This document shows positions 8,350-39,339 of a stretch of 64,000 bases of DNA, piece after piece. This stretch comes from a virus (lineage: Duplodnaviria; Heunggongvirae; Uroviricota; Caudoviricetes). Position numbers and translations under genes: made by a program. The notes under the pieces are model-generated. The model had not been told where the DNA came from and ran no database searches. It worked only from the letters and a program-made list of their open reading frames with translations. The stretch lies in IMG/VR virus record IMGVR_UViG_3300024270_000054, one strand, 5' to 3'. Each line of letters starts with the position of its first letter. Position 1 is the first letter of the stretch.

Positions 8350-8356
8350 GGAGTAG

Positions 8357-8433: not shown

Positions 8434-8438
8434 TGTAG

Positions 8439-8515: not shown

Positions 8516-8518
8516 TAG

Positions 8519-9240: not shown

Positions 9241-9268
9241 GAAATAAATAACATCGGAGGTACACATT

Positions 9269-9525: not shown

Positions 9526-9533
9526 GTAGTCAT

Positions 9534-9719: not shown

Positions 9720-10648
9720 ATAGTGGAAAAATTGGCGGCATCCTGCTTGCTGTGATTCTTGTGATCATTGCTGGCGTGCTTATCGGCTGTGCAGTACGCA
9801 TTCCTGCTGGATACGTCGGTATTGTCTATGACATGAACGGCGGCGTTGGCGATGAAGTTCTCACGCAGGGCTGGAAGCTGGTCGCTCCGACGAAGAAGGT
9901 AACGACGTACACCATCGGCCTTGAGCAGTCTGGTCTCACGGCGGAGTCTACACAGGATTCCTCTGGCGATGAGTCGTTTAACATTCCGACCAGCGATGGT
10001 AAGACGGTGAATGTCAGCCTTGAGTTCTCGTACTATTTTGATAGCGAGCGGATTGCCGACACATTTAAGCTCTTCAAGGGACAGTCTGGCGAGTCGATCA
10101 AGACCACGTTTATTAAGCCGAAGATCAAGGCATGGACACAGGAAGTTTCTGCCAATCATCCGGTTGCCGATATCTTCGGCGATCAGCGAACGGTGATTAA
10201 CAATGAGCTGGATATTCACCTGAAGGAGAAGTTTGACCAGTACGGCATCATTATCGATACGGTGAACTTCACAGATATCCGCGTGGATGAAGAGACTGCA
10301 AAGGCTATTCAGCAGAAGGTCAACGCACAGCAGGAACAGGAACTTGCGCGTATTCAGTCTGAGACTGCAAGGATTCAGGCAGAGAAGGATAAGCAGGTTG
10401 CTCTAATTGCGGCGGAAAAGGAAAAAGATGTGGCCTCTGTGAATGCAGAGCGTCAGATCATCGCTGCGCAGGCCGAGGCAGATGCGCTGATGATTCAGGC
10501 AGGAGCCGAAGCGGATGCGAACAAGCTGATTGCCGCATCTCTCACGCCGGAGCTGATCGAGAAGATTAAGTACGAGCGATGGGATGGCGCAATGCCGAAG
10601 GTGTCTGGCGGCATGCCGATTATCGATATCGGCGACGTGGGAGAGTAA
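9716..10648 (+). CDS. SPFH/Band-7 (prohibitin/stomatin-like) domain protein with a C-terminal coiled coil
   Basis: N-terminal TM segment, then GYVGIVYDMNGG...LTQGWKLVAP, typical of the SPFH core. Long Ala/Glu/Gln-rich coiled-coil C-terminus. Confidence 0.6.
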   Translation: MNSGKIGGILLAVILVIIAGVLIGCAVRIPAGYVGIVYDMNGGVGDEVLTQGWKLVAPTKKVTTYTIGLEQSGLTAESTQDSSGDESFNIPTSDGKTVNVSLEFSYYFDSERIADTFKLFKGQSGESIKTTFIKPKIKAWTQEVSANHPVADIFGDQRTVINNELDIHLKEKFDQYGIIIDTVNFTDIRVDEETAKAIQQKVNAQQEQELARIQSETARIQAEKDKQVALIAAEKEKDVASVNAERQIIAAQAEADALMIQAGAEADANKLIAASLTPELIEKIKYERWDGAMPKVSGGMPIIDIGDVGE

Positions 10649-10692
10649 TCTTCCACATAGACACTTGCCCGCTTCCCCTGCGGGCATTTCAC

Positions 10693-10782
10693 GGGGAGTT
10701 ACCCAAGCGGCTGAAGGGGGCGGTCTTGAAAACCGCTAGGCGGCAACCCCGCGCAAGGGTTCAAATCCCTTACTCCCCGCCA
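10693..10782 (+). tRNA. tRNA-Ser (anticodon TGA), type II
   Basis: Acceptor ggggagt/actcccc, anticodon stem gcggt/accgc with loop ctTGAaa, long variable arm, T-arm agggttcaaatccct, CCA encoded. Confidence 0.8.
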
Positions 10783-10789
10783 TTTTCTT

Positions 10790-10875
10790 GCCGGACTGGT
10801 CGGAACTGGCAGACGCGGCGGATTCAAAATCCGTTGTCTTATGACGTGTGGGTTCAAGTCCCACGTCCGGCACCA
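10790..10875 (+). tRNA. tRNA-Leu (anticodon CAA), type II
   Basis: Acceptor gccggac/gtccggc, anticodon stem gcgga/tccgt with loop ttCAAaa, variable arm, T-arm tgggttcaagtccca, CCA encoded. Confidence 0.8.
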
Positions 10876-10995
10876 TATATAGAGAAGCTACGAAAACATT
10901 GGATGGATAAGCGCATGAAAGACTTGGCGGCTCAGACAGACCAGCCTCGCATAGTGTCTGTCGATTCCGATGATTGCGCAGCTTCTCTTTTGTTT

Positions 10996-11069
10996 GCAGA
11001 CATGGTGTAGTGGAAACATATCTGATTCCCATTCAGAGGATGCGGGTTCGATTCCCGTTGTTTGCACCA
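10996..11069 (+). tRNA. tRNA-Gly (anticodon CCC)
   Basis: Acceptor gcagaca/tgtttgc (one G:U), anticodon stem tctga/tcaga with loop ttCCCat, T-arm gcgggttcgattcccgt, CCA encoded. Confidence 0.7.
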
Positions 11070-11111: not shown

Positions 11112-11819
11112 ATGTATATGGATAAGAAAAGGCTCCCGTTTAATGAATCCGCTATCTCTTGTACAAATGCGGAATCTGTCTCCAATGCGGTTGCTATTTC
11201 AAGGTCTGATTCCGCGATGAGTTGCGCATCAGAAAGCTCCTATTCAAATCTTCTTGAACGTCATAATCGTGAAGTGGAAAGCGCGGCAACGAAGCATTAC
11301 GAAAATGGCATGCAGTCGGATACCAAGTGCAAGATCGTCTATGAGGATGGCAAGATTAGCGTGCTCAAGCACCTTAGCACTCATATTACAAGGCATATTT
11401 GCATCATGTCTGACATCAAATCGATCAAGGTGTATAACGACAAGCACGGCAATCAGAAGTCGATGACTATGGCCTTTAACAATGGCGTAAGTGTTACTGC
11501 CTCCGTGGATGATATGGATGTATTCTCCATGGATCAGGGCATCACCATTTGCTTGCTGAAGTATATGCTGAACAGAGCTTCGGAAGGCTGCGAAACCTCT
11601 ATCTATAATAAGCTTGTGAAGCACGCCAATCGCGTCTATGAAAATGGCGTGCGTGAAGAGGAAGCGGCGAAGGAAGAAGCCAAGCGCCTTGAGGCAAAGC
11701 ATAAGAAGCTTGCCGCAAAGAAACAGCGCCGTAAGGCCAAGAAGCGCGAATACGAGATTGAACTTCGTAAGGAAGCATATATTCGCGCAATGAACGAAAT
11801 GCAGAACAAGCCGCTATGA
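11112..11819 (+). CDS. hypothetical protein with a basic coiled-coil C-terminus
   Basis: AAGAGGAAA RBS. 235 aa. C-terminal KEEAKRLEAKHKKLAAKKQRRKAKKRE. Confidence 0.55.
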   Translation: MYMDKKRLPFNESAISCTNAESVSNAVAISRSDSAMSCASESSYSNLLERHNREVESAATKHYENGMQSDTKCKIVYEDGKISVLKHLSTHITRHICIMSDIKSIKVYNDKHGNQKSMTMAFNNGVSVTASVDDMDVFSMDQGITICLLKYMLNRASEGCETSIYNKLVKHANRVYENGVREEEAAKEEAKRLEAKHKKLAAKKQRRKAKKREYEIELRKEAYIRAMNEMQNKPL

Positions 11820-12577
11820 TCTATGTAACGGGCGATTGCCACGGCGATTTTACAAGGTTCAATACCAGATTCTTCCCAGACCAAAAAGAAATGACCAAGG
11901 ATGATTTTGTGATCGTCCTTGGCGACTTTGGTTTGTGGCATCCATGCAAGAGCGAATCTTATTGGCTGAAGTGGCTTAGTAACAAGCCGTTTACCACACT
12001 GTTTGTCGATGGCAACCATGAGAATTTCGATAGGCTATATAGCGATGAGTTCCCGATTGTTGATTTTCATGGCGGTAAAGCGCATAAGATCGCGGATAGC
12101 GTATATCACCTGATGCGTGGTTATGTGTTTACCTTGCAGGGCAAGACATTTTTTGCCTTTGGCGGAGCCAGCAGCCATGATATTGACGATGGTATTCTGG
12201 ATGAAAAGGATTTCCCAAGTAGACGAGCCTTTATCAAGACGTGCGCAAAGATGAACGATCTGAACAAGAAATTCAGAGTCAATCATATGGATTGGTGGGA
12301 GCAGGAGCTTCCAAGTGCTAAGGAAATAAATCGTAGTCTAATTTCCTTAAAGCAACATGATAACCGCGTTGATTTTGTCATTACGCATTGTCTTCCGCAG
12401 GATATTGCATCACTTATTTCAGGTGGGCAGTATAAGTCGGATCGTCTAACGTCATATTTTCTTTCCATTTCGCGTAAATTGCAGTTTGATCAGTGGTATT
12501 GCGGACATTATCATAAGGATTTGCGCATTTTCTGTACATATAATGTTTTGTATCGCCGGATTATGCGTATCGTATAG
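11816..12577 (+). CDS. calcineurin-like metallophosphoesterase (Ser/Thr phosphatase family)
   Basis: Motifs GDCHGD, LGDFG and VDGNHENF (GDxHG / GDxxD / GNHE). Confidence 0.8.
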   Translation: MIYVTGDCHGDFTRFNTRFFPDQKEMTKDDFVIVLGDFGLWHPCKSESYWLKWLSNKPFTTLFVDGNHENFDRLYSDEFPIVDFHGGKAHKIADSVYHLMRGYVFTLQGKTFFAFGGASSHDIDDGILDEKDFPSRRAFIKTCAKMNDLNKKFRVNHMDWWEQELPSAKEINRSLISLKQHDNRVDFVITHCLPQDIASLISGGQYKSDRLTSYFLSISRKLQFDQWYCGHYHKDLRIFCTYNVLYRRIMRIV

Positions 12578-13107: not shown

Positions 13108-13488
13108 ATGGGTACGTTCAGAGTGATCATTGCAGGAACACGGACGTTCAACGACTATGAATTGCTGAAAGCGTATTGCGATAAGAAGCTTTCAAGAATG
13201 TGTATCGACCATAAGATTGTCATTGTCAGTGGTCATGCGAGGGGCGCTGATATGCTGGGCGAGCGATATGCGCAGGAAAGCGGTTATGAGGCAAGATTAT
13301 ATCCCGCTTATTGGGATATCTATGGTAAATCCGCTGGTATCCGCCGCAATGTCAAGATGGCCGAGAATGCAGATGCACTCATTGCTTTCTGGGATGAAAA
13401 GTCTACTGGCACAAAGCACATGATTGCTGAGGCAAAGCGGCGCGGCCTGATGGTTGCCGTCAAGCTTTATGGAAAGGGTTCAGAGTAA
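13108..13488 (+). CDS. DUF2493 / SLOG-family (DprA/LOG-like Rossmann) protein
   Basis: VIIAGTR...VSGHARGADMLGERYA...YPAYWDIYGKSAGIRRN...ADALIAFWDEKSTGTKHMI matches the DUF2493 pattern. Confidence 0.55.
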   Translation: MGTFRVIIAGTRTFNDYELLKAYCDKKLSRMCIDHKIVIVSGHARGADMLGERYAQESGYEARLYPAYWDIYGKSAGIRRNVKMAENADALIAFWDEKSTGTKHMIAEAKRRGLMVAVKLYGKGSE

Positions 13489-14734: not shown

Positions 14735-15167
14735 TGTACAAGAGCAACTTGACCGGGTTGGCATGTCTGTAAAGGATCTTCCAACAGGAATGCAAATCCT
14801 GTGCAATACGGAATCCTTTAATGCACTGTGTAAGCGGATTACAGATATGATGGAAGCAAGCGATATGGGCAATATCTTTGTGTTTGCCTGTCATCAGACG
14901 CAGGCCATCGATCTTCTGACACAGGCGCTCAAGTATGCATGCGATCAGAGAGATGCTTTGGTAAGCATGATGTCTAAGAGCCGTGGTCGATGTGAATTCT
15001 GCGCTTGGAATGAGGGCGTTCAGACATGGGATGTATGCCCGTATGAATATTCTCATGCATGCCATATTGGTATTGCTGATTATTGGGAAATGAACAAAGC
15101 GCTTAGAAAGATTATGCTCAGAAAGGATATGCAGCCATGCTCTACACAACCTATTTTGCAAATGTGA
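14712..15167 (+). CDS. hypothetical Cys-rich protein
   Basis: 151 aa ORF, coupled. Confidence 0.45.
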   Translation: METSNRNDVQEQLDRVGMSVKDLPTGMQILCNTESFNALCKRITDMMEASDMGNIFVFACHQTQAIDLLTQALKYACDQRDALVSMMSKSRGRCEFCAWNEGVQTWDVCPYEYSHACHIGIADYWEMNKALRKIMLRKDMQPCSTQPILQM

Positions 15168-15502
15168 AAAAGCTCCCGCCGGATATTATCCCCATCAGTA
15201 TTTGCGGGAAAGCGCCGGGTGGATACAAGGGTTTGCAGTATAAGACGCTCGCGCCTATGTATGCGTTCTTCCAGAAATGGAAGGAAACCAGAGACAACCA
15301 TTACTACGTGCAATGCTATAACGAGCAGGTGCTGCTGATGCTTGATGCAAACCGCGTTCTTGAAGAACTGAAAGCTTTGTCTGGCGGCGCTGAGAATATC
15401 GCGCTTGTCTGCTACGAGAAGCCGGAGGATTTCTGTCATCGTCATTTGGTCGCTAACTGGTTTAGAGAGAATGGCATTCAGATTAAAGAGTGGGGTACGT
15501 AA
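15137..15502 (+). CDS. DUF488-family protein
   Basis: YTTYFAN...VCYEKPEDFCHRHLVANWF matches the DUF488 pattern with conserved E..P..CHR. Confidence 0.5.
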   Translation: MLYTTYFANVKKLPPDIIPISICGKAPGGYKGLQYKTLAPMYAFFQKWKETRDNHYYVQCYNEQVLLMLDANRVLEELKALSGGAENIALVCYEKPEDFCHRHLVANWFRENGIQIKEWGT

Positions 15503-15515: not shown

Positions 15516-15683
15516 ATGCTTGCAGTTCTTGAATTCATTTTTCAGGATTTCTGGCATTGGGCGGGTGCGCTGGTGCTGGTGTCCGTAATCGTATCGCCGC
15601 TTGGCGGTGCGCTGATTAGCTGCAATATCAATAGCAGCAAGAACACACAGAAGGAAGAAATAAGCAATGATTGTAAGAGCTAA
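15516..15683 (+). CDS. small membrane protein
   Basis: AAGGAGGA RBS. TM helix WAGALVLVSVIVSPLGGALI. Confidence 0.5.
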   Translation: MLAVLEFIFQDFWHWAGALVLVSVIVSPLGGALISCNINSSKNTQKEEISNDCKS

Positions 15684-15816
15684 ATTGCTGCCCATGCCGA
15701 ACAATGGGCGAATATCTCAGTGCTCCTGCTGTGGTGGCGGAGTGGACACATCAACGCAGCCAATCAGTTGCCCATGGTGTAATGCTTGGCTGAGTAAGGT
15801 TAGTAAGGAGGATAAG

Positions 15817-16080
15817 ATGTCTATGGATATTGGCGGCGCAGTAAAGGCGCTGAAGGATGGTAAGCGTGTAACTCGTTCGGCTTGGCATGCTGGCATGTTT
15901 GTGTATTATGTGCCTGCCTCGCGGTATGATGCGTATACCGATGCTGGAAAATCGATTGCCGGAGATGATGGAAAGGTCGCTTATAATGCTTATCTTGCAG
16001 CAAAATCTAACCATAGCGCTGTGAATGTGTGGTTCCCGGCCTTGGCGGATATTCTTGCCGACGATTGGCATATTGTGTAA
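15817..16080 (+). CDS. DUF2829-family phage protein
   Basis: AVKALKDGKRVTRSAWHAGMFVYYVP...VWFPALADILADDWHIV matches the DUF2829 consensus. AAGGAGGA RBS. Confidence 0.6.
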   Translation: MSMDIGGAVKALKDGKRVTRSAWHAGMFVYYVPASRYDAYTDAGKSIAGDDGKVAYNAYLAAKSNHSAVNVWFPALADILADDWHIV

Positions 16081-16688: not shown

Positions 16689-17138
16689 ATGACGCTTGAA
16701 GTTTTGCAAAAAGAAATGATCGCCGCCATGAAGTCCGGCGAAAAGTTCCGTAAGTCCGTACTTTCCGATATCATTGCGTCCGTCAAGAAGGTTGCGCTTG
16801 ATAAGGGATGCCGTGATGACGTTTCAGAATCTCTTGTCGATGAAGTGCTCATCAAATACAAGAAGACTGTTCAGGAGATGATCGACACCTGCCCCGGTGA
16901 GCGTGTTGAAACCATGGCGGAGTATGTTCGTCAGTTCGATATTGTCGATGAGTTTGCGCCCAAGCTGATTGACGACGAAGAGAAGATCCGTCAGCTTATC
17001 GTTGGCATTGCCTTGCAGCTCAATATCCAGCTTGAGAAGAAGAATCGTGGGCTGCTGATGAAATCGCTGTCCGCCGAGCTGAAGGGGAAAGCGGATATGG
17101 CTGTTGTCAGCAAGGTTGCCTCTCAGCTTTTGCAGTGA
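16689..17138 (+). CDS. GatB/YqeY-domain protein
   Basis: N-terminal MTLEVLQKEMIAAMKSGEKFRKSVLSDIIASVKKVALDKG follows the YqeY pattern. Confidence 0.6.
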   Translation: MTLEVLQKEMIAAMKSGEKFRKSVLSDIIASVKKVALDKGCRDDVSESLVDEVLIKYKKTVQEMIDTCPGERVETMAEYVRQFDIVDEFAPKLIDDEEKIRQLIVGIALQLNIQLEKKNRGLLMKSLSAELKGKADMAVVSKVASQLLQ

Positions 17139-26502: not shown

Positions 26503-26544
26503 AGCAGATAAAGTATTGACAACAAGCGAGAGAAAGAATATAAT
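26503..26544 (+). promoter_or_regulatory. promoter carrying the conserved motif (AGCAGATAAAGTA-TTGACA-17nt-TATAAT)
   Basis: TTGACA at 26516-26521 and TATAAT at 26539-26544. Confidence 0.6.
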
Positions 26545-27868: not shown

Positions 27869-28384
27869 ATGAACAAGGTTCTTATTGTTGTCGATTATCA
27901 GAACGATTTTGTGTTTGGTGCGCTTGGCAGTGCTAATGCGCAGTCGATCTATAACGGCGTAAAAGCGAAGATTGAGCAGGCGCAGAATGAAGGTACGCAT
28001 GTGATTTTCACGCTTGATACGCACGATGCGGATTACATGATGACGCAGGAGGGCAAGAAGCTTCCGGTGCAGCATTGTATTGCCGGGGCACATGGATGGA
28101 TGGTTGTCCAGAATCTGAATAACCTGAATGGAAATGCACATCAGTGCATCACAAAGCCAACTTTCGGCTATCTTGGCTGGGATCTTGGCGACTTTGATCA
28201 GATTGAAATGATTGGCGTATGCACGGACATCTGCGTTGTGTCCAATGCATTGATTCTCAAGGCGATGTACCCGGAAGTTGAGATTACTGTTGATGCTTCC
28301 TGTTGTGCTGGAACCTCTGTTGAAGCACATAATGCTGCGCTCACCGTCATGAAGTCCTGTCAGATCAATGTGATTGGAGAGTAA
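27869..28384 (+). CDS. pncA: isochorismatase-family cysteine hydrolase, nicotinamidase (PncA)-like
   Basis: N-terminal IVVDYQNDF (catalytic Asp), PVQHCIAGAHG (PncA metal-binding His region, compare Mtb PPHCVSGTPG), and catalytic Cys in IGVCTDICV. Confidence 0.75.
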   Translation: MNKVLIVVDYQNDFVFGALGSANAQSIYNGVKAKIEQAQNEGTHVIFTLDTHDADYMMTQEGKKLPVQHCIAGAHGWMVVQNLNNLNGNAHQCITKPTFGYLGWDLGDFDQIEMIGVCTDICVVSNALILKAMYPEVEITVDASCCAGTSVEAHNAALTVMKSCQINVIGE

Positions 28385-28395
28385 GGAGATTTGCC

Positions 28396-29184
28396 ATGAT
28401 TAAGTATAATGGCGAAATCGTTAAGCCCGGATATTTCCCGGATGGTACGATTCATTTTAACGCCTCATGTTCAGGCAAGTCTCATCACACAATCAAGTGG
28501 CTGTTTGAGAGCAATGAAGAGTTGTTTACGCTGATTTGCTTAACCAAGCATATCAAGGAGCGTAGTAATAAGGATATTCATTTGATTATGCCCTACGTGC
28601 CAAATGCACGTATGGATCGCATCAAGAATAGCGACGAGGTGTTCACGCTCAAATACTTTGCCGAAGTGATCAACGATCTTGGATTCAATGAAGTTGTTGT
28701 CCTTGATCCGCATTCTCATGTTTCCGAAGCGCTCATTGATCGCGCAGTTATTGTATCGGCGAGCGATCTTATTGCTCACGTAGCAAGCAGAATCGGCGCA
28801 CCGCTATTCTTCTATCCCGATGAGGGAGCAATGAAGCGATATTCGGAAGAGGTAAAGGCCAAGTATGTTTTCGGTATCAAAAAGCGCGATTGGAAAACCG
28901 GAAAGATCCTTGGGCTGGATGTCGTTGGAGATGCCGATGAGATTAGGGGAAAAGATATTCTGATTGTCGATGATATCTGTTCCCGTGGAGGAACGTTCTA
29001 TCATAGCGCAAAGAAGCTCAAAGAGCTTGGCGCAGGCAAGATTTATCTGTGCGTTACCCATTGTGAGAATACCATTCTCGATGGTGAACTTCTTGAATCT
29101 GGCCTGATTGAAAAGGTATTTACCACAGGCTCCATCTTCACCGCTTCACATCCAAAGATCGAGGTAATTCAGTATGAGATGTAA
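28396..29184 (+). CDS. ribose-phosphate pyrophosphokinase (Prs) family protein, shorter than canonical; could be a PRPP synthetase or an Adps-like ADP-ribose pyrophosphokinase
   Basis: PRPP-binding PRTase motif ILIVDDICSRGGTF. Prs-like layout. 262 aa. Confidence 0.65.
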   Translation: MIKYNGEIVKPGYFPDGTIHFNASCSGKSHHTIKWLFESNEELFTLICLTKHIKERSNKDIHLIMPYVPNARMDRIKNSDEVFTLKYFAEVINDLGFNEVVVLDPHSHVSEALIDRAVIVSASDLIAHVASRIGAPLFFYPDEGAMKRYSEEVKAKYVFGIKKRDWKTGKILGLDVVGDADEIRGKDILIVDDICSRGGTFYHSAKKLKELGAGKIYLCVTHCENTILDGELLESGLIEKVFTTGSIFTASHPKIEVIQYEM

Positions 29185-30691
29185 TACGAATCCAATGCTC
29201 CTTATCGATTTTTATAAGGCTGTCCATGCGGAAATGCTTCCCAAGGGCATTACCAAATCCGTTTCCTATTTCACGCCACGTATGAGCCGTGTGAAGATGT
29301 GGGATAGCGTTGTCATGTTTGGCTTGCAGGCGTTTATCAAGACGTATCTGATTGACTATTTCAATCAGGAATTCTTTAATAAGCCGTATGAAGAGGCTGT
29401 CGGCGAGTATAAGCGCGTTATGGACGCTGCACTTGGCAAGGGCGTTTACGGCATTGAGAAGATCGAAAAGCTTCATGCTCTTGGATATCTGCCTATCAAG
29501 ATCATTGCACTGCCGGAAGGAACCAAGGTTCCTATGCATGTGCCGATGTTCGGTATTACCAATACGCATGATGATTTTGCTTGGCTCCCGCAGGCGCTGG
29601 AAAGCCTTATTTCCGCTGAAATGTGGCATCCGATGATTGCAGCAACGGTTGGTCACACCTATCGTCAGATTGTCAATAAGTATTACGACGAGACGTGTGA
29701 CGACAATATTTCTCGTTCAAAGGCGCTTGGCGCGTTTGATTTCCGTGGAGAAGAGTGCTTACAGTCTGCTGTCAAGGCTGGCGCTGGCTGGTGCCTGTCC
29801 TTCCTCAATACTGCAACCGTGCCGACAATCCCATATCTTGAGCAGATGTATGATTGTGATTGCACAAAGGAAGCTGTTGCCTTTGGCAGTGCAAGCACGG
29901 AGCATTCTGTTATGTGTTCAAACTTTGCCGTCGATGGCGATGAAGTGACGCTGCTAAAGCGCTTGCTCACGGAGATTTATCCAAATACAAGCTTCTCCTG
30001 CGTGCTGGATAGTTACGATTACTGGAATGTCATCGACAATATCCTTCCGCAGATTAAGGAGGAGATTCTTGCACACAACGGCTGTATGCTCATGCGCGGC
30101 GATTCTGGCGATTGCGTCGAAGTTGTAACTGAGACTGTCTTTAAGCTTTGGGACATGTTTGGCGGCAAGATCAACTCCAAGGGTTATAAGGTGCTCGATC
30201 CGCATGTCAAGGCGATTTATGGGGATTCCATTACCATTCAGCGTTGCGAGAAGATTTATGAGATTCTTAAAGAGAATGGTTTTGCGGCCTGTAATGTGGC
30301 GCTCGGCGTTGGCTCGTTCTCTATGCAGTGCATCGAAGAGTATGAGTTCATCGAGGATAGGATTGAGGGTGGCGGTATGTATGCCAATGTGCTCAAGCCG
30401 TTTACGCGCGACACCTTCTCTTCCTGTATCAAGGCGACATATTGCGAGATCGACGGTAAGCCCGTCCCGATCTTCAAGAATCCCAAGGACGGCGGCTTTA
30501 AGAAGTCTCAGAAGGGATGCTGTATCGTCAGGCGCGATGAAAGCGGAAAGCTCGTCTATACAGATGGTCATACGTGGAATGAATCTTGTACGAGCACCAA
30601 TCTTCTTCGTCCGGTCTTCTGTAATGGCGGCATGCTCAGAACACAGAAGCTCAGTGAAGTGCGAGATATCCTGAATGGAGGAAATTTCTAA
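29174..30691 (+). CDS. NAMPT/NAPRT-family phosphoribosyltransferase (NadV- or Namat-like)
   Basis: N-terminal LLIDFYKAVHAEMLPKG..SVSYFTPR parallels the NAMPT pattern D.YK..H...P.....YSYFE.R. 505 aa. Start overlaps the upstream stop. Confidence 0.7.
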   Translation: MRCNTNPMLLIDFYKAVHAEMLPKGITKSVSYFTPRMSRVKMWDSVVMFGLQAFIKTYLIDYFNQEFFNKPYEEAVGEYKRVMDAALGKGVYGIEKIEKLHALGYLPIKIIALPEGTKVPMHVPMFGITNTHDDFAWLPQALESLISAEMWHPMIAATVGHTYRQIVNKYYDETCDDNISRSKALGAFDFRGEECLQSAVKAGAGWCLSFLNTATVPTIPYLEQMYDCDCTKEAVAFGSASTEHSVMCSNFAVDGDEVTLLKRLLTEIYPNTSFSCVLDSYDYWNVIDNILPQIKEEILAHNGCMLMRGDSGDCVEVVTETVFKLWDMFGGKINSKGYKVLDPHVKAIYGDSITIQRCEKIYEILKENGFAACNVALGVGSFSMQCIEEYEFIEDRIEGGGMYANVLKPFTRDTFSSCIKATYCEIDGKPVPIFKNPKDGGFKKSQKGCCIVRRDESGKLVYTDGHTWNESCTSTNLLRPVFCNGGMLRTQKLSEVRDILNGGNF

Positions 30692-31155
30692 TGATCCAGC
30701 ATGTAAAGTGCAACATTTTTGACTCTGGTGCAGACGTTGTTCTACATCAGGTCAATTGTCAGGGCGCTATGGGCAGCGGTGTTGCCCTGCAAGTTCGCAA
30801 GCGTTTCCCGCGAGTCTACTATGCCTATAAAAAGGCATGCGATGCAAAGGCTGGCGCTCGACGTGATCTGCTTGGCATCGCCCAGATCGTCATGGCTGAT
30901 TCCAATATGTTTATTGCAAACCTGTTTGCTCAGGAGAACTTTGGCTATGACGGCGCATGTTATACCGACTATGACGCTCTTCGCAAGTGTCTTGAAACTG
31001 TAAAAACCAATTGTGTTGGCAAGCGTATTGCCATTCCGTATCTGATGGGTTGTCATCGTGGAGGCGGCGATTGGTCTATCGTGTATCAGATGATCGAGGA
31101 AGTCTTCTGCGACGATTCAGATGATGTCATTGTCTGCGAATATAACGGAGGCTGA
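30691..31155 (+). CDS. macro-domain (ADP-ribose-binding/processing) protein
   Basis: NIFDSGADVVLHQVNCQGAMGSGVALQVRKRFP fits the macro-domain N-terminal signature. 154 aa. Confidence 0.65.
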   Translation: MIQHVKCNIFDSGADVVLHQVNCQGAMGSGVALQVRKRFPRVYYAYKKACDAKAGARRDLLGIAQIVMADSNMFIANLFAQENFGYDGACYTDYDALRKCLETVKTNCVGKRIAIPYLMGCHRGGGDWSIVYQMIEEVFCDDSDDVIVCEYNGG

Positions 31156-31159
31156 TAAG

Positions 31160-31957
31160 ATGGACGCTATGAAACTTAAAGACCAGTGCGTAGAATGGAT
31201 TCGCAATTGGTTTGAAGAAAACGGCAGCGGATGCAAAGCTGTAATTGGTATTTCAGGCGGCAAGGATTCCACCGTCGTTGCGGCGCTTTGTGTAGAAGCT
31301 CTTGGCCGTGATCGTGTGTTTGGTGTGCTGATGCCCAATGGTGAACAGCCGGATATCGATGATGCGGCAGATGTTGTGAACCATCTTGGTATTGATTTTG
31401 TTCAGATCAACATTGAAGATGCATGTAACGATATTGCAACCGAAATCTGTATGCCATATAGCTTATATCGTTGCCAAGCAGACTATTCTTATACGTCTGG
31501 AGCGATCAGTATGACTGAGCAGGCGATGATCAATCTTCCTCCGCGTATTCGCATGGCAACCTTGTATGCAATCAGCCAGAGCATCGGTGGTCGCGTAGCC
31601 AATACATGCAATCTTTCCGAGGATTGGATTGGTTATTCTACCCGATATGGAGATGGCGCAGGCGATTTTGCTCCGCTTGGTGGACTGACTTGCAGCGAAG
31701 TGGTACAGATTGGGCTTGCGCTTGGTTTGCCGGAAGAGATGGTCAGGAAGGTTCCCAGCGATGGTCTGTGTGGCAAGACGGACGAAGACAGCTTTGGCTT
31801 CTCTTATGCGGTTCTTGATCATTACATCAGGACGGGAGAGTGCAAAGATATTGCAATCAAGGCAAAGATTGACTATCTCCACAAAAAGAACGAGTTTAAG
31901 CTGAAGCCCATTCCGGTATTTCGCATTCCAATTGAATTCACTTTACGAAGAGGGTGA
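31160..31957 (+). CDS. nadE: NH3-dependent NAD+ synthetase (NadE)
   Basis: PP-loop ISGGKDSTVVAAL. STRYGDGAGDFAPLGGL matches NadE TKYGDGGTDINPL. The C-terminal VLDHYIRTG is conserved. Confidence 0.85.
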   Translation: MDAMKLKDQCVEWIRNWFEENGSGCKAVIGISGGKDSTVVAALCVEALGRDRVFGVLMPNGEQPDIDDAADVVNHLGIDFVQINIEDACNDIATEICMPYSLYRCQADYSYTSGAISMTEQAMINLPPRIRMATLYAISQSIGGRVANTCNLSEDWIGYSTRYGDGAGDFAPLGGLTCSEVVQIGLALGLPEEMVRKVPSDGLCGKTDEDSFGFSYAVLDHYIRTGECKDIAIKAKIDYLHKKNEFKLKPIPVFRIPIEFTLRRG

Positions 31958-31961
31958 TTAA

Positions 31962-32798
31962 ATGCCGGAAGAGCTAAGAAAAGACATGATCATTGAGTCA
32001 AGGCTGAGAGAGCACTTGAATCATTACCTGAAAACATATCCAAACGATTGGATTGGCATTTTCCTTCAGGGATCTCAGAACTACGGTCTGGATTATGAAA
32101 CCAGCGATATCGACACAAAGATCATTGTTCTTCCATCTCTTGAGGATATTGCGCTTAATAAGCAGCCAATATCGACTACGCTTGTCATGCCCAACGATGA
32201 ACATGTGGATGTCAAGGATATCCGATTGATGTTTGATTGCTTTAAGAAGCAAAACATCAACTTCCTTGAGATCCTGTTTACAAAATGGAACATCGTCAAT
32301 CCAAAGTATGACGAGCAGATGAGCGATGTGTTCATTAGACGTGAAGAGATTGCGCATTACAGCAATTATGCAGCTCTCCATTGCATGCTTGGTATGGTTA
32401 ATCAGAAACGCAGCATGCTCATGAAGCCGCATCCGTCCGCAGCGGAGGTTGTGAAGAAATATGGTTATGATGGCAAACAGCTTCATCATATGGAGCGCAT
32501 CTTGGAATTCTTCTATCGGTATACAAACGGCGTTCCGTATGAAGAGTGTTTGATCAGTCAGAACCGTGATTATCTGATTTCTCTGAAAAAGCAAGAACTT
32601 CCACTTCACGATGCGGTGCGTAGAGCAGATGAGATCGTCGATGTGATGACGGACGCTGTAGAGGCGTATAAGGTCGTCCATGATAGATACGTCAATCATG
32701 CTGTAGAAGAATTGCTGAACAAAACGCTTGTTGAAGTTATGAAGTGTGCAATTGAATCCGAGGTAAAAGATGGACTGGATGAAAGATATGAGCCCTGA
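31962..32798 (+). CDS. Pol-beta-superfamily nucleotidyltransferase-domain protein
   Basis: GSQNYGLDYETSDIDTKII matches [GS]x9-13 Dx[DE]. 278 aa. Confidence 0.5.
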   Translation: MPEELRKDMIIESRLREHLNHYLKTYPNDWIGIFLQGSQNYGLDYETSDIDTKIIVLPSLEDIALNKQPISTTLVMPNDEHVDVKDIRLMFDCFKKQNINFLEILFTKWNIVNPKYDEQMSDVFIRREEIAHYSNYAALHCMLGMVNQKRSMLMKPHPSAAEVVKKYGYDGKQLHHMERILEFFYRYTNGVPYEECLISQNRDYLISLKKQELPLHDAVRRADEIVDVMTDAVEAYKVVHDRYVNHAVEELLNKTLVEVMKCAIESEVKDGLDERYEP

Positions 32799-33877: not shown

Positions 33878-34129
33878 ATGGATCTTAAAGACACGATTGA
33901 TATGATGACCAGCGTTGACCATCAGCAGCGTTTTAAGGCAGAATACGATCAAACCAAGATCAGGCGCGATAGGCTTTATAGGATGGTTGAATCCTATGCA
34001 AGCGACGCACTTGGTTTCACGCCAAAGTGTCCGATGGAGCTGCTTATGGATCAGATCAAGGCGATGGACAAGTATCTGTTCATTTTGCTTGAACGAGCGA
34101 AGATCGAGGGAATCGATCTGACAACCTGA
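33878..34129 (+). CDS. hypothetical protein
   Basis: RBS AGAGGGATAAAT. 83 aa. Confidence 0.5.
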   Translation: MDLKDTIDMMTSVDHQQRFKAEYDQTKIRRDRLYRMVESYASDALGFTPKCPMELLMDQIKAMDKYLFILLERAKIEGIDLTT

Positions 34130-34130: not shown

Positions 34131-34880
34131 ATGACGGATAGGGTTACATTGCATCAAGGAGACTGCCTTGAGCTGATGAAGGAGATCCCAAGTCACAGCA
34201 TCGATATGGTTTTGTGCGATCTTCCATATGGCGGAGTAACCAAGAACAAATGGGACTCCGCGCTTCCTCTGGATGAGCTGTGGAGGCAATACAAGCGAAT
34301 CATCAAGCCTAATGCTGCGATTGTGCTGTTTTCAGACGGCATGTTTGAAGCAAATCTGATGCTCTCCAATCCGAAAATGTGGCGGTACAATCTCGTTTGG
34401 GATAAGGTGCTTGTCACTGGATTTCTGAATGCAAACCGTATGCCACTCAGATCCCATGAAGAAATCTGCGTCTTCTATGATAAACAGCCAGTATATCATC
34501 CGCAGAAGACGATAGGGGAGAAGAATCATAGCAGCGGTGCAAAGAAGGATAGAGCAAACCATAATTATGGCTCATTCGATTTTGTTGATAATTCAGAATC
34601 GCTTGGCTGTATGAAGCATCCAAGAAGTATCGTTCGTTTTCAAAAGCCGCACGCTTCTAAGACGGTTCATCCAACTCAAAAACCTGTTGAGCTGTGTGAA
34701 TACCTGATCAAAACCTATACTGATGAAAACCATATCGTGCTGGATAACTGTATGGGTTCTGGCACAACGGGCATTGCCTGCGTCAATACAGGCAGGCGTT
34801 TTATCGGTATAGAAAAGGATGAAGGGTATTTCAGTATAGCAGAACGTCGAATTCGTGATGCAATTCATGACAACAAATAA
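34131..34880 (+). CDS. DNA methyltransferase (beta-class N6A/N4C; motif IV before motif I)
   Basis: CDLPYGG (DPPY-like motif IV) near the N-terminus and LDNCMGSGTTGIA (FxGxG motif I) near the C-terminus. Confidence 0.8.
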   Translation: MTDRVTLHQGDCLELMKEIPSHSIDMVLCDLPYGGVTKNKWDSALPLDELWRQYKRIIKPNAAIVLFSDGMFEANLMLSNPKMWRYNLVWDKVLVTGFLNANRMPLRSHEEICVFYDKQPVYHPQKTIGEKNHSSGAKKDRANHNYGSFDFVDNSESLGCMKHPRSIVRFQKPHASKTVHPTQKPVELCEYLIKTYTDENHIVLDNCMGSGTTGIACVNTGRRFIGIEKDEGYFSIAERRIRDAIHDNK

Positions 34881-34881: not shown

Positions 34882-34922
34882 CCAGAAAAAGTATTGACTG
34901 AAACGTGGATTAGATGTATAAT
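34882..34922 (+). promoter_or_regulatory. promoter carrying the conserved motif (CCAGAAAAAGTA-TTGACT-17nt-TATAAT)
   Basis: TTGACT at 34894-34899 and TATAAT at 34917-34922. Confidence 0.6.
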
Positions 34923-34954: not shown

Positions 34955-35245
34955 ATGTTATGTAAGAAATGTTTTAAGCCGATGAAAGTGGTTGTCCAGT
35001 TTACCAAGGAAAAGGCGGTGACATTCAATCGCTGCCCGATCTGCTGGTTTGAAACGAGAAAGACACCTTTTCAATTCCCTAGTTTAAAACCAAAGCAGAC
35101 AAAGTATAAACAGAACAATGCGATTGCTCCACCGGAAAAGAAAAAGGAGCAAGGAAATGTACAACGCATACATTACAACAATCCGGGATCTAAGAAAGCA
35201 CAGCAACGCAGATCGTCTGCAGTGCGCAACAATCTTCGGAAATAA
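34955..35245 (+). CDS. small zinc-ribbon / basic protein; overlaps the start of the RNA ligase gene, so its extent is uncertain
   Basis: AGGAG RBS 8 nt before ATG 34955. CKKC...CPIC. Confidence 0.35.
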   Translation: MLCKKCFKPMKVVVQFTKEKAVTFNRCPICWFETRKTPFQFPSLKPKQTKYKQNNAIAPPEKKKEQGNVQRIHYNNPGSKKAQQRRSSAVRNNLRK

Positions 35246-36470
35246 CGTCATTGTCGATCTGAGCTATCAGGTCGGTCAGCGCGTAATCTATTTCCCGGTC
35301 GATGGTCAGCTCAGTGAAGAGTTTGCCAAGGCTAATAACCTTGTCCGAATCAAGGATGAAAACGGAAACAACACAGGCGGATATCTTGACCCGGATAAGC
35401 GGAATATCACAGCACTCAAGTTGCGCGGCGAAAAGTCTGATGGTCTGGTTCTTCCGATTAAGGTACTTGAGCCGTATGTGGACATCAATACCCTTGTCGA
35501 TGGCCAGCAGATCAGCGAGCTCAACGGGCATCTGATTTGCCGTAAGTATATTCCACGCAGACAGGCGGCGAAGACGACTGGCGGTAACGGAAAGTATAAG
35601 GATAAGCGCAAGCCGGAGGATAAGGTTAATTATCCATTCTTCAAGGAGCATATCGACACGGCGCAGCTCGCCTATAATCAGGGCGCGTTCAGGCCGGGTG
35701 ATACATGCTACATCACCTTGAAGATGCATGGAACTTCCGCAAGAACGGCCAACACCATTGAGGTTCGCCGCAAGCCGACTCGTTTCTATCATCATCTTTT
35801 CCGCACAAAGCCCAAGGAAACCCGTCATTATTCCTGCGTAAGCGGTACGCGCCGTACCACGCTCAGGAATTACGACGGCGGATACTATGGCAGCAATGCG
35901 TTCAGAGAGCAGTATCATGCGATGCTGCGAGATCGTCTGCCCAAGGGTATGTGCGTGTTCTACGAGATCGTTGGCTGGATTGATGAGAGCAAGACCATTA
36001 TGGGACGTTGCTCCAATAAGCTGGTTAAGGATAAGGAGTTCACAAAGCAGTATGGTGATGAGACTGTCTTCTCCTATGGCTGCGATATCGGCAAGAGCGA
36101 TATCTATGTCTATCGCATGACTATGAGCAATGAGGATGGTTACGAAGTTGAAATCCCGTGGGAGCAGGTCAAGATCGAATGTGAAAAGATGGGTGTGAAG
36201 TGTGTTCCTGAATTTGAAAAGTTCATTTTCACCACTTGGGAAGACCTCATGGAGCGCGTTGAAAAGTATTACGACGGCGCAGATCCCATCGGTAAGACGC
36301 ATGTACGAGAGGGCGTAGTTGTGCGAATTGATAACCGCGAGCACTTTACAGCCTATAAGCACAAGAATTTCAGCTTTAAGGTGCTTGAAGGAATCATCAA
36401 GGATACAGCGGATGCCCCGGATATTGAAGAAGCTGAGGAGCAGATGACAAATGATGTTCAAGACGAATGA
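35157..36470 (+). CDS. ATP-dependent RNA ligase (Rnl2-like)
   Basis: Motif I KMHGTS (T4 Rnl2 KIHGTN), motif IV EGVVVR and motif V FTAYKHKNFSFKV (KxK). AAGGAG RBS. Confidence 0.7.
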   Translation: MYNAYITTIRDLRKHSNADRLQCATIFGNNVIVDLSYQVGQRVIYFPVDGQLSEEFAKANNLVRIKDENGNNTGGYLDPDKRNITALKLRGEKSDGLVLPIKVLEPYVDINTLVDGQQISELNGHLICRKYIPRRQAAKTTGGNGKYKDKRKPEDKVNYPFFKEHIDTAQLAYNQGAFRPGDTCYITLKMHGTSARTANTIEVRRKPTRFYHHLFRTKPKETRHYSCVSGTRRTTLRNYDGGYYGSNAFREQYHAMLRDRLPKGMCVFYEIVGWIDESKTIMGRCSNKLVKDKEFTKQYGDETVFSYGCDIGKSDIYVYRMTMSNEDGYEVEIPWEQVKIECEKMGVKCVPEFEKFIFTTWEDLMERVEKYYDGADPIGKTHVREGVVVRIDNREHFTAYKHKNFSFKVLEGIIKDTADAPDIEEAEEQMTNDVQDE

Positions 36471-37479
36471 ACACTCTCTTGAAACTCCGCAAACTTTGGG
36501 CGTTTCAGAATGCAATTCTGACGATAAAACACCCGTTTTATTCATGATGATCGGTCTTCCGGGCAGCGGCAAGTCTACTTACGCCAAGGAGATTGCTGCT
36601 GACCCTGAAGGTCTCCATCCGGTCATTCTCTCCTCCGATGAGCTCCGCAAGGAGCTCTTTGGAGACGATGAAGATCAGAGCCATAATGCGCAGGTTTTCG
36701 ATGAGCTTCACAAGCGCATCAAGGAGAATCTGCAAAATGGCGTGAGCGTCATCTATGATGCGACCAACATCGATAAGAAGCGCCGCGTCGATTTCTTGCA
36801 GTCCATCAAGAAGATTGATTGCATTAAGACCGCTATTGCTGTGATGACTCCGTATGACGTTTGCCTTGAGCGCTGTAAGAAGCGTGACCGCAAGGTGCCG
36901 GAATACGTCATTCGCAGAATGCTCATGAACTACGCGCCGCCTCATATCCATGAGGGATTCGATTATGTCCACTTCGACTTTGAGCATGCCGATTTGGACT
37001 GCGACGCTCCTATGAAGTATTCTCTGTGCAATCTCTCTCAGCATCCGGGCGGTTTCTTCGATCTGGATCATGAGAATAAGCATCATCGTGATACGGTTGG
37101 CGTGCATTGCTTCAATGCTATGATGTATCTGTATTTTGCAAAGCCGAACCATAAGCTTTTGCAGCTTGCAGCCCTTCTTCATGACATTGGTAAGCCGTTT
37201 ACGAAAACCAAGATGAATAAGCGCAGAGAGTTTGACGGCGACTATCATTATTATCAGCATCACTGTGTTGGCGCATATGAATCTCTTTTCTATCTGATTT
37301 ATCTTGCACTAACCAATAATGAACGCGCATATATCGCCAATCTGATCTATTACCACATGCATCCTTATATGAGCTGGAAGCAGTCTGAAAAGGCGAAGCT
37401 CAGGGATATGCGCCTGATTGGTGAGGACATGTTTGCCGATGTTATGACGCTTCATGAAGCCGACATTGCTGCACATTGA
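36451..37479 (+). CDS. polynucleotide 5'-kinase fused to an HD-domain phosphohydrolase (Pnkp-like RNA end-healing enzyme)
   Basis: N-terminal LFMMIGLPGSGKSTYAKE and VIYDATNID parallel T4 Pnk. The C-terminal half has HD-domain motifs (H..H...LLHDIGKP...HH). Confidence 0.7.
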   Translation: MMFKTNEHSLETPQTLGVSECNSDDKTPVLFMMIGLPGSGKSTYAKEIAADPEGLHPVILSSDELRKELFGDDEDQSHNAQVFDELHKRIKENLQNGVSVIYDATNIDKKRRVDFLQSIKKIDCIKTAIAVMTPYDVCLERCKKRDRKVPEYVIRRMLMNYAPPHIHEGFDYVHFDFEHADLDCDAPMKYSLCNLSQHPGGFFDLDHENKHHRDTVGVHCFNAMMYLYFAKPNHKLLQLAALLHDIGKPFTKTKMNKRREFDGDYHYYQHHCVGAYESLFYLIYLALTNNERAYIANLIYYHMHPYMSWKQSEKAKLRDMRLIGEDMFADVMTLHEADIAAH

Positions 37480-38186: not shown

Positions 38187-38432
38187 ATGCAATCAGGCGA
38201 AACAAGATCAAACGGGTGCTTTGTTGCACAGCTTGCAGATTATCTTCCGCATATGGTGTCAAAGGTAATCTGCCTCAAATGCTATAAGCGATGGATAGCA
38301 GTCCGTCCAACACATACATTGCTTGAATCGCTGGAATGTCCAAACTGCGGTGCCGGATACGTTATTGAAACGGGACAGGTATTGAAAAACAGCGATTCTT
38401 ACAACGAAGAGGAAGTAACACATTATGAATAG
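38187..38432 (+). CDS. zinc-ribbon protein
   Basis: GGAGGG RBS. CLKC...CPNC. 81 aa. Confidence 0.45.
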   Translation: MQSGETRSNGCFVAQLADYLPHMVSKVICLKCYKRWIAVRPTHTLLESLECPNCGAGYVIETGQVLKNSDSYNEEEVTHYE

Positions 38433-39339
38433 AGACGCACTTGGCGACCGAATGAAAGCATATCAAAATGTGCATCGCATTTATCTGACTAGGCGCATGC
38501 CTCTGATTATCCGTATTGATGGCAAGGCGTTCCGTAGTTATACCCGCAATTTTACGCAGCCATATGACAACGTTCTCATTTCTTCGATGCAGCAGACAGC
38601 GAAGTATCTGTGCGAAAACATCGAGGGGTGCAAGCTTGCTTATACGCAGTCGGACGAGATTTCACTTCTTCTGACGGATTATAAGACGTTCAATACGCAG
38701 CCATGGTTTAGCAAGAATTTGCAGAAGATGGTGTCCGTCGCAGCAAGTATGGCGACTATGGCGTTCAACCAAGCATTTACCGATGCAACTTTTGATGCAG
38801 CAAATTATGCTTACAACGATGAATTGCATAACACTACGGAAGATCGTCAAAAGGCATATGCCGAAGTAATGAACAGGTATAAAGCAAAATGTGGCATGGC
38901 AATGTTCGATGCCCGTGCATTCCTTCTCCCCAAAGAAGAGGTGTGCAATTACTTCATCTGGCGGCAGCAGGACGCATCTAGGAATTCCATCAATATGCTT
39001 GGCAGAGCATATTTCTCTCATAAAGAGATGAACGACAAGAATACCAGCCAGATTCAGGACATGCTCATTGAAAAGTATGGTATCAACTGGAACGACATTG
39101 AAACGCATAAGAAGCGCGGTTCCTGTGTGATCAAGGAGACCTACGAAACGAAGGTTCCAATGACAAAGGTTCGTCCAAAGAAGGATTCTCCTGAAAACTG
39201 GCAGGACATTGAATTCATTCCTATCGCACCAGAACTCGATGTTCCAACCATTCAGCGATCCAGATGGATTGTTGATATGGAGATCCCAATTTTTACAAAA
39301 GACCGTGAGTATATCGATAAGTATGTACGAGGAGGCTGA
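38425..39339 (+). CDS. Thg1-like protein (tRNA-His guanylyltransferase family, 3'-5' nucleotidyltransferase)
   Basis: LIIRIDGKAFRSYTRNFTQPYDNVLISSMQQTAKYL...KLAYTQSDEISLLL aligns with Thg1 [24 protein letters not shown]...IAYGQSDEYSFVF. Confidence 0.75.
   Translation: MNRDALGDRMKAYQNVHRIYLTRRMPLIIRIDGKAFRSYTRNFTQPYDNVLISSMQQTAKYLCENIEGCKLAYTQSDEISLLLTDYKTFNTQPWFSKNLQKMVSVAASMATMAFNQAFTDATFDAANYAYNDELHNTTEDRQKAYAEVMNRYKAKCGMAMFDARAFLLPKEEVCNYFIWRQQDASRNSINMLGRAYFSHKEMNDKNTSQIQDMLIEKYGINWNDIETHKKRGSCVIKETYETKVPMTKVRPKKDSPENWQDIEFIPIAPELDVPTIQRSRWIVDMEIPIFTKDREYIDKYVRGG

Follow-up and report, generated by a model that had tools for sequence, protein, structure and literature searches.

A module of five genes in a Caudoviricetes genome fragment (IMG/VR record IMGVR_UViG_3300024270_000054; the whole stretch of 64,000 nucleotides (nt) that was analysed is called the window) probably encodes a variant of the phage pathway NARP1, which would rebuild nicotinamide adenine dinucleotide (NAD+) after NAD+-cleaving host immunity via deamidated intermediates. 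The module comprises the following genes (lengths in amino acids, aa; profile matches with E-values in brackets):

27869..28384, + strand: PncA-type nicotinamidase, 171 aa (PF00857, 3.6e-23)
28396..29184, + strand: Adps-like enzyme of the phosphoribosyl pyrophosphate (PRPP) synthetase (PRPS) fold, 262 aa (Prs domains; TIGR01251, 1e-33; phrog_619, 5e-69)
29174..30691, + strand: variant Namat-like transferase, 505 aa (NAPRTase/NAMPT_N; NF006629, 4.9e-128; phrog_448, 5e-157)
30691..31155, + strand: macro-domain protein, 154 aa, Adpp-like putative ADP-ribose (ADPR)-1''-phosphate phosphatase (PF01661, 8.6e-5; phrog_335, 4e-41)
31121..31957, + strand: single-domain NH3-dependent NAD+ synthetase NadE, 278 aa (PF02540, 1.7e-49; TIGR00552, 5.1e-49)

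A preceding sequence-only reading had described six tightly coupled genes at 27869-32798 as a phage NAD+ reconstitution operon built on a Prs-like/NAMPT-like pair. All six open reading frames (ORFs) were recovered on the + strand at these coordinates with the profile family assignments listed, and the pair proved to be that of NARP1 (Adps + Namat; Osterman et al. 2024, bioRxiv 10.1101/2024.02.11.579819; structures PMC12774641, PMC13586617). The genes are packed with an 11-nt gap, an 11-nt overlap (between the adjacent Adps-like and Namat-like genes, 28396-29184 and 29174-30691), a 1-nt overlap, a 35-nt overlap and a 4-nt gap; the macro/NadE junction becomes a 4-nt gap instead of the 35-nt overlap if NadE starts at Met14 (nt 31160). 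Of the overall reading, the NARP1-based operon with PncA and NadE was supported, whereas the novelty of the macro domain, the membership of the sixth gene, a nucleotidyltransferase, and a missing adenylyltransferase step were not. The module has five genes, not six, and its most informative feature, a two-residue pyridine-pocket switch in the Namat-like enzyme, had been overlooked.

The best solved relatives of the Namat-like transferase in the Protein Data Bank (PDB) were 9w5x and 9w5w (6.7e-118), whereas bacterial and human Nampt followed just at 1e-39 to 1e-46. As the residues published for SpβL1 Namat are found in their sequence, the two PDB entries 9w5x and 9w5w are taken to be structures of this protein. 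The catalytic core of the window enzyme is conserved (Asp12, Tyr14, Phe188, Arg191, Arg308 and Asp310, corresponding to Asp13, Tyr15, Phe189, Arg192, Arg306 and Asp308 in SpβL1 Namat), as are the clamp residues Arg39 and Phe382 (Arg40 and Phe392 in SpβL1 Namat). The pocket for the pyridine base is changed at two positions:

29813..29815, + strand: codon of Ala214, aligned with Asp215 of SpβL1 Namat and Asp219 of human NAMPT
29894..29896, + strand: codon of Ser241, aligned with Ala242 of SpβL1 Namat, a residue of the nicotinamide pocket

In SpβL1 Namat, Asp215 hydrogen-bonds the amide of nicotinamide, Ala242 lines the same pocket, and the D215A substitution lowers NAD+ output 8.1-fold (PMC12774641). 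In human NAMPT the corresponding Asp219 "defines substrate specificity", and D219S switches the substrate. The amide-binding aspartate is absent from the window enzyme while the catalytic core is otherwise intact, and because of the exchanges Asp215 to Ala214 and Ala242 to Ser241 the enzyme was not classified as a canonical nicotinamide-using Namat. This switch forms the link between the pathway and PncA and NadE.

The region following the pocket contains a further deviation:

30311..30412, + strand: remodelled "selectivity clamp helix" (GSFSMQC, a 23-aa insertion, FTRD)

The published clamp consists of the SCL stacking residue Arg40 and the SCH motif GSXΦXΦXΦTRD in which positions 3 and 7 are aromatic. 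In the window enzyme position 3 is Phe382, position 5 is Met and position 7 is Cys386, and the 23-aa insertion precedes FTRD. The insertion was considered as a hallmark of the variant and rejected, since the Namat of phage phAss-1 (OQ749652.1; PMC10607447) is pocket-switched (Ala/Ser) yet has an intact canonical clamp, GAYTYQYVTRD. Large insertions were also seen elsewhere in the family: many Namat-like representatives (P0122, P0144, P0185 and others) reach 800-1100 aa, their match to the query being divided into 2-4 stretches, possibly owing to inteins or inserted domains, and the Namat-like protein of locus L082 has an insertion of ~80 aa after a "CGN" motif ("CGD" in SpβL1), itself located after DSGDP.

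The connection between pocket state and operon partners was assessed in 235 distinct Namat-like genes from viral contigs, each with flanks of 3 kb or more on either side, whose neighbourhoods were scored with profile hidden Markov models (HMMs); the set included three added viral-contig scans from alignments of Ser/Ser-type, other Ala/Ser-type and Asp/Ala-type enzymes. Positions are given in SpβL1 numbering (215 + 242).

Pocket Asp/Glu + Ala, n = 94: Adps 94, PncA 0, NadE 0, macro 16
Pocket Ala/Ser + Ser, n = 141: Adps 140, PncA 141, NadE 137, macro 83

The Adps gene adjoins Namat in 234 of the 235 loci, and two of the four variant loci lacking NadE have merely ~3 kb of downstream flank. The association between pocket and context gave p values of ~1e-61 to 1e-68 in Fisher's test, uncorrected for relatedness. 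The HMMs detect even the E. coli proteins (PncA at 47 bits, NadE at 112 bits), and the zeros in the canonical loci are therefore real. Eight loci of the canonical type (L225, L236, L276, L288, L293, L306, L307 and L321) carry Glu at position 215, have the reversed order, Namat then Adps, and are without PncA and NadE. Among 80 IMG/VR loci whose enzymes are 70-80% identical to that of the window, the order PncA-Adps-Namat-[macro]-NadE was found in essentially all and Ala215/Ser242 in 80/80; the module also occurs in separate lineages with Namat just 30-46% identical to the window enzyme. Recurrence of this type of gene set in more than 140 distinct viral loci shows that the combination is not due to chance.

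Covariation of the two positions was also found in a search of 1.84 billion representatives, of which the 150 nearest clusters at 50% identity were examined for the pocket: 94 had Asp + Ala, 29 Ala + Ser and 18 Ser + Ser, so that about 48/150 are switched and Ser215 is a natural state in 18. The deposited phages are in independent agreement with the viral-contig survey: a Namat/Nampt homologue is present in 2040 records, NadE in 48 and a PncA-like protein in 7, all seven from the human gut. One of these is phAss-1, whose Namat is 30% identical to that of the window and has the same Ala/Ser pocket and the same partners.

The pocket-switched lineages are only 30% identical to each other but 39-43% identical to Asp-type enzymes, which points to functional coupling rather than hitch-hiking and for the same reason leaves room for the switch to have evolved more than once. 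In a neighbour-joining (NJ) tree the Asp-type enzymes were monophyletic and the Ala/Ser lineages paraphyletic on very short internal branches; the best BLAST hits of the phAss-1 Namat are Asp-type enzymes. A single clean origin of the switch was considered and is not established by these data.

Both enzymes that accompany the switch look catalytically competent by their conserved motifs. The PncA-type protein has the isochorismatase fold with an Asp-Lys-Cys triad and an Asp/His/His metal site, and its PDB relatives are mostly nicotinamidases (3s2s, 3o90, 1ilw/1im5, 3pl1, 2h0r). Across 137 distinct homologues from variant operons no exchange occurs at the catalytic Asp9 and Lys96 or at the metal site Asp50/His52/His69, and Cys118 is kept in 134. 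The E. coli PncA equivalog cut-off is missed (31.9 vs 174 bits), and the window protein is therefore a divergent member. NadE consists of a single PP-loop ATP-pyrophosphatase domain without a glutaminase domain; PF02540 spans residues 22-261 of 278, TIGR00552 is exceeded clearly (166.7 bits vs a cut-off of 63.65), and the SGGxDS motif (SGGKDS at residues 45-50) is invariant in 126 distinct homologues. Its top PDB match is an NH3-dependent NAD synthetase (2e18, 2.2e-36). PncA and NadE are thus real and conserved additions to NARP1, in line with the sequence-only reading. No published description of PncA and NadE together with NARP1 was found in the accessible parts of the full-text literature, the NARP1 preprint, the Iyer/Aravind survey, the NARP3 report, the aRES/Adpp preprint with its supplements and the phAss-1 paper, a coverage that is incomplete and in which absence is not proof.

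The sequence-only reading had left it undecided whether the Prs-like protein makes PRPP or ADPR pyrophosphate (ADPR-PP). Comparison by blastp placed it on the Adps side: it is 42% identical to the Adps of SpβL1 (2.6e-51) and 34% to that of ICP1 (3e-31), against 25% to E. coli Prs (2e-17), and by sequence it is much nearer to characterised Adps than to housekeeping Prs. Adps is distinguished by a PRPS fold with the acceptor residues Phe18, Arg87, His121, Asp161 and Asp212/213 and the catalytic Lys185, by a remodelled PP loop and by loss of the C-terminal alpha11-alpha12 region (PMC13586617). All of these features were found in the window protein, for which Adps activity is predicted. It carries Phe18, Arg87, His121, Asp161, Lys185 and DDIC (ICP1 numbering) as well as the K-x-R-D/N-x-x-T-G-x-I β-hairpin motif of Adps. 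Its PP loop, DDICSRGGTF, is like that of SpβL1 Adps (SFGGTF) and differs from DDMIDTGGTL of PRPS, and both the N- and the C-terminal extensions of PRPS are absent (262 aa vs 315 in E. coli Prs). Phe92 of Adps is replaced by Lys, a position that is also not kept in SpβL1 Adps (Glu).

The macro-domain protein and the characterised Adpp of Vibrio phage Gary are 29% identical in a full-length alignment (E 2e-13), and the window protein also matches the yeast Poa1p structures 6lft/6lfq at 2.7e-6 to 7e-6. Adpp is a macro phosphatase present in ~15% of NARP1 operons, termed NARP1-AP, which converts ADPR-1''-phosphate (ADPR-1''-P), the product of aRES, to ADPR (bioRxiv 10.64898/2026.01.28.702374). By its position between Namat and NadE within a NARP1-type operon and by its similarity to Adpp, the window protein belongs to this group, its phosphatase activity being putative. 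The macro domain is therefore an already known accessory of NARP1 and not, as had been proposed, part of an undescribed composition. It is optional, occurring in 83/141 variant operons (59%) and 16/94 canonical ones (17%). A different function, that of a DarG-like DNA ADP-ribosyl glycohydrolase acting against DarT-type toxins rather than of a phosphatase feeding the pathway, is suggested by the strongest profile matches (NF048014, 1.7e-20; PADLOC DarG, 1.9e-21) and by matches to the DarG structures 5m3i/5m31 (1e-10 to 5e-9); PADLOC returned solely this DarG match and weak hits to phosphoribosyltransferase domains. However, DarG, TARG1 and Poa1p form one macro class in which profile scores do not separate activities, and the fixed position of the gene in NARP1-type operons, as published for Adpp, together with the full-length alignment with Adpp, makes a DarG-like function quite unlikely. 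In phAss-1 (L083, 5784-6203, - strand) the place of the macro gene is occupied by that of a 139-aa protein with the motif DFDDT (DxDxT, typical of HAD phosphatases), which may have taken over the role of the Adpp phosphatase without being its homologue.

Taken together, the most economical reading of the module is a deamidated form of NARP1. Nicotinamide released by NAD+ cleavage would be hydrolysed by PncA to nicotinate and NH3 (nicotinamide + H2O -> nicotinate + NH3), the latter being needed by NadE. Where the host makes ADPR-1''-phosphate, the Adpp-like macro protein would turn it into ADPR, which presumably lets the pathway use the product of RES-type NAD+ phosphorylases, by analogy with NARP1-AP. 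ADPR would then be pyrophosphorylated by the Adps-like enzyme (ADPR + ATP -> ADPR-PP + AMP), and the variant Namat would couple nicotinate to ADPR-PP, yielding nicotinic acid adenine dinucleotide (NaAD; ADPR-PP + nicotinate -> NaAD + PPi, where PPi is pyrophosphate). Finally, NadE would convert NaAD to NAD+ with ATP and NH3 (NaAD + ATP + NH3 -> NAD+). ADPR is taken as the input because of the Adps markers, the enrichment of macro genes in variant operons, the retained Arg39 and Phe382, and the canonical clamp of phAss-1. Provided that Namat attaches the pyridine base straight to ADPR-PP, the scheme lacks no adenylyltransferase step, contrary to the earlier proposal. A HIGH-type (H/T)xGH adenylyltransferase motif was not found in any frame of the window, and none of 25 of the 78 Pfam families matched by window genes is an adenylyltransferase family. 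Somewhat more specifically, and with a chance only slightly better than even, the pocket-switched Namat is a nicotinate ADP-ribose transferase forming NaAD from ADPR-PP and nicotinate, and PncA-Adps-Namat*-[Adpp]-NadE is a distinct pathway, a hybrid of NARP1 and Preiss-Handler, that is widespread in phages of gut Clostridia.

Several points weigh against this reading. In human NAMPT, D219A causes loss of activity and not a switch, and Ala214 alone is therefore no proof of nicotinate use. The window clade deviates from the published clamp signature (Tyr394 is Met/Phe, Tyr396 is Cys, with an insertion of 9-23 aa), which makes the use of ADPR-PP over PRPP less certain for it than for the phAss-1 lineage. 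Among the solved relatives of NadE, 3fiu ranks second (2.4e-25); this is a Francisella enzyme preferring nicotinic acid mononucleotide (NaMN), so the sequence leaves the substrate of NadE unsettled. The association between pocket and context may rest on few evolutionary events, whose number the NJ tree does not resolve. The route costs one ATP more than NARP1, and its selective advantage is a matter of conjecture, candidates being competition with host PncA, trapping of the base as charged nicotinate, and a thermodynamic pull. Moreover, we infer all substrates and products of the variant as well as its anti-defence role.

The main rival is a phage-boosted Preiss-Handler salvage without ADPR recycling, in which the Prs-like protein is a true PRPP synthetase, PncA feeds nicotinate, the Namat-like enzyme acts as a nicotinate phosphoribosyltransferase forming NaMN from PRPP and nicotinate, and host NadD and phage NadE complete the route. 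An enzyme using nicotinate and PRPP would be expected to show the same pocket switch, characterised Namat retains activity with PRPP (PMC12774641), the adenine-clamp motif is degraded in the window clade, the NCBIfam family bears the name "nicotinate phosphoribosyltransferase", and the Prs-like protein just clears the TIGR01251 cut-off (116.6 vs 113 bits). Yet this protein is far nearer to Adps than to PRPS and has the Adps-specific loops and truncations, and a macro protein resembling ADPR-1''-P phosphatases, useful solely with ADPR as input, is encoded in 59% of the variant operons. Of the clamp, the window enzyme retains Arg39 and Phe382, and the phAss-1 lineage all of it. Furthermore, the HIGH-motif scan of the window revealed no phage NadD or nicotinamide mononucleotide (NMN) adenylyltransferase (NMNAT), unlike in NARP2 phages, which have their own adenylyltransferase. 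A salvage route of this kind is accordingly unlikely, although it deserves more weight than the other alternatives. It is improbable that the module is an ordinary NARP1-AP, making NAD+ from nicotinamide and ADPR-PP, to which two unrelated auxiliary genes have been added, so that PncA and NadE top up NAD+ via the host Preiss-Handler route and the pocket changes are neutral lineage markers. Adps, Namat and macro do already constitute a complete published pathway, and the association could come from one or a few ancestral events, but removal of the amide-binding Asp costs 8-fold in SpβL1 Namat and abolishes NAMPT activity, a loss that a nicotinamide user should not tolerate, and PncA would destroy the substrate of Namat itself. 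Pocket state and PncA/NadE are, in addition, coupled across lineages that are 30% alike vs 39-43% to the Asp type.

Comparison of the deamidated NARP1 variant with the known systems showed what is shared and what differs. With NARP1 the window has in common the adjacent Adps-like and Namat-like genes, the Adps signature residues, the Namat core and the clamp residues corresponding to Arg40/Phe392. It differs by the exchanges Asp215 to Ala and Ala242 to Ser, by the interrupted clamp helix motif, by PncA and NadE flanking the variant pair (0/94 canonical NARP1 operons), and by the predicted transferase product, NaAD instead of NAD+. NARP1-AP (bioRxiv 10.64898/2026.01.28.702374) shares the macro gene, 29% identical to Adpp over the full length, but in the window this gene is combined with PncA, NadE and a pocket-switched Namat, and 59% of variant operons have it, more than among canonical ones (17% here, 15% published). 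As in the Preiss-Handler route (PncA, PncB, NadD, NadE), PncA would act first and NadE last, with passage via nicotinate and NaAD; PncB and NadD are, however, replaced by the Adps/Namat-like pair, which is predicted to form NaAD in one step from ADPR-PP, and the HIGH-motif scan found no NadD-type gene in the window. NARP2 (NadV + NadM/NatV, Vibrio phage KVP40) and NARP3 (PnuC + NadR; PMC13464706) likewise restore NAD+ in phages against NAD+-depleting immunity. NARP2 is defined by a NadV-type Nampt with a phage NMN adenylyltransferase. The architecture of the window differs from both, and the HIGH-motif scan of all its frames gave no NadM or NadR motif, no search having been aimed at PnuC. A further counterpart is phAss-1, in which genes for nicotinamidase, Prs-like, Nampt-like and NadE proteins follow the same order and the Ala/Ser pocket is present; its Namat, 30% identical to that of the window, has the canonical clamp, and the 139-aa DxDxT protein stands instead of macro. 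Its authors list "Nicotinamidase" in a table only, give NadE as hypothetical and discuss no pathway (PMC10607447).

The sixth gene of the packed stretch was found to belong to an RNA-repair set:

31962..32798, + strand: Pol-β-type nucleotidyltransferase (NTase), 278 aa (PF10127 RlaP, 22.8 bits vs a cut-off of 23; phrog_388, 4e-13)
35118-36470, + strand: RNA ligase (phrog_968, 4.4e-77)
36451-37479, + strand: polynucleotide kinase (PNK) (phrog_505, 4.7e-21)
38425-39336, + strand: Thg1-like tRNA-His guanylyltransferase (PF04446, 5.2e-28), ~0.95 kb 3' of PNK

The sequence-only reading had suggested that this NTase could supply the NMN/NaMN adenylyltransferase step within a six-gene scheme. In favour of this, it lies only 4 nt from NadE, and one lineage has the NTase inside the module (PncA-Adps-Namat-84aa-NTase-macro-...-NadE). 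The homologues of the NTase form a large family in which several members were already annotated with PF10127, "RNA repair pathway". Of 60 distinct homologous loci, 59 have a gene for a PNK-type kinase directly 3' of the NTase (median gap ~20 nt) and about 48 an RNA ligase directly 5' (median gap 270 nt), so that the genomic context typical of RlaP, an NTase with RNA ligase and PNK, is found in 59/60; one of the 60 has the NTase inside the NAD module. The NTase is near merely 2 of the 235 Namat loci and lies 14 kb from the NAD module in phAss-1. An AlphaFold2 model (pLDDT 95.4) gave as best Foldseek match the ANT(4')/kanamycin NTase (6.5e-6, TM 0.43), followed by Hailong HalB, LinB and CCA-adding enzymes; NadD or NMNAT was not among the Foldseek matches, and the fold is not that of HIGH-motif NMNATs. 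The six-gene scheme is thereby largely refuted and retains next to no probability. The NTase is the middle member of an RNA ligase-NTase-PNK repair triad that is displaced here. In the window the triad is split, a 2.3-kb stretch of small ORFs and a DNA methyltransferase gene lying between the NTase and the RNA ligase and PNK genes. The view that the NTase is wholly unrelated to the NAD module was softened in turn, given the lineage that holds it inside the module. Between Namat and NadE, this lineage (L404-L408 and L411) carries two small ORFs and genes for a GP88-family protein and the RlaP-type NTase; genes are evidently exchanged between the repair and NAD modules. In related phages the RNA-repair block often lies within 4-7 kb of the NAD module. 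The stretch that splits the triad encodes a small crAss001_48-related protein (PF21825, 9.6e-18; 33878-34126, + strand) and the N6/N4 DNA methyltransferase (PF01555, 6.1e-30; 34131-34880, + strand). A YqeY-like protein is encoded at 16689-17135, away from the repair block.

The window belongs to a large, tRNA-rich phage, as indicated by 16 tRNAs and genes for a PolIII-alpha-type DNA polymerase, DnaB, NrdD, RNA ligase, PNK and integrase; primase, NrdG and ThyX genes are also present. A nucleotide search among 50,697 phage records revealed no near-identical deposited relative. Related genes were found in metagenome-assembled genomes (Lachnospiraceae, Acetatifactor, Ruminococcus, Oscillospiraceae) and in isolates, e.g., Filifactor villosus CCUG 46385 and Lachnospiraceae strains, and gut Clostridia are therefore the likely hosts. 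Promoter- and terminator-like sites in the window did not exceed the counts in shuffled sequence overall; the same scan listed promoter-like sites at 26516-26544 (12/12) and 34894-34922 (11/12) and a terminator-like hairpin at 34774-34795. The tRNA array spans 2532-11069, and ARAGORN could not assign the anticodon of the tRNA at 2801-2874. Window genes are read through under code 11 with no recoding seen, and the relative phAss-1 uses code 15 with suppressor tRNAs. Directly 5' of the array a reverse transcriptase is encoded (RVT_1, 1.6e-15; 831-1922, + strand). A tyrosine integrase gene (phrog_1, 5.5e-68; 60046-61284, + strand) is followed by a switch of the coding strand and a drop in GC skew, which could mark a prophage end or a temperate lifestyle; a 767-aa protein encoded at 61690-63996 (- strand) has no PHROG match.

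Other genes of the window touch the same theme. At 15667-16077 (+ strand) a protein of 137 aa is encoded that has a Tad2-like Thoeris anti-defence domain (PF11195, 6.7e-17) and would give the phage a second means of countering NAD+/ADPR-based immunity. Near it are encoded a SLOG-family YAcAr protein (PF10686, 6.2e-14; 13108-13485, + strand), an "active DUF488-N3" protein (PF22751, 1.2e-15; 15137-15499, + strand) and, at 11816-12574, a metallophosphoesterase; this region may be a cluster for anti-defence or the processing of nucleotide signals. Distant from the NAD module, a NADAR protein of ADP-ribose-processing type (PF08719, 4.5e-29; 58633-59079, + strand) is encoded beside a dUTPase gene (58199-58627). 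The Tad2-like, SLOG and NADAR genes fit a phage pressed by NAD+/ADPR-based immunity.

Depletion of NAD+ runs through bacterial antiviral immunity as a central theme (Thoeris, SIR2, DSR, Argonaute-associated systems, aRES), and the phage NAD+ reconstitution pathways have so far been catalogued singly as NARP1, NARP1-AP, NARP2 and NARP3. The present analysis adds a large, hitherto undescribed branch of NARP1 that is defined by sequence. Viral contigs yielded no fewer than 141 distinct operons of this type, and the branch occurs chiefly in uncultured phages binned with Clostridia of the human and animal gut. The two-residue signature Ala/Ser215 + Ser242 is a near-perfect predictor of operon context and can be used as an annotation rule, whereas detectors of NARP1 that use Adps + Namat alone merge two probably different chemistries. 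The variant predicts a new reaction, the direct formation of NaAD from ADPR-PP and nicotinate, an activity so far undescribed, and represents a natural experiment on the switching between nicotinamide and nicotinate in type II phosphoribosyltransferases. Its existence suggests that in these hosts the fate of nicotinamide itself is contested.

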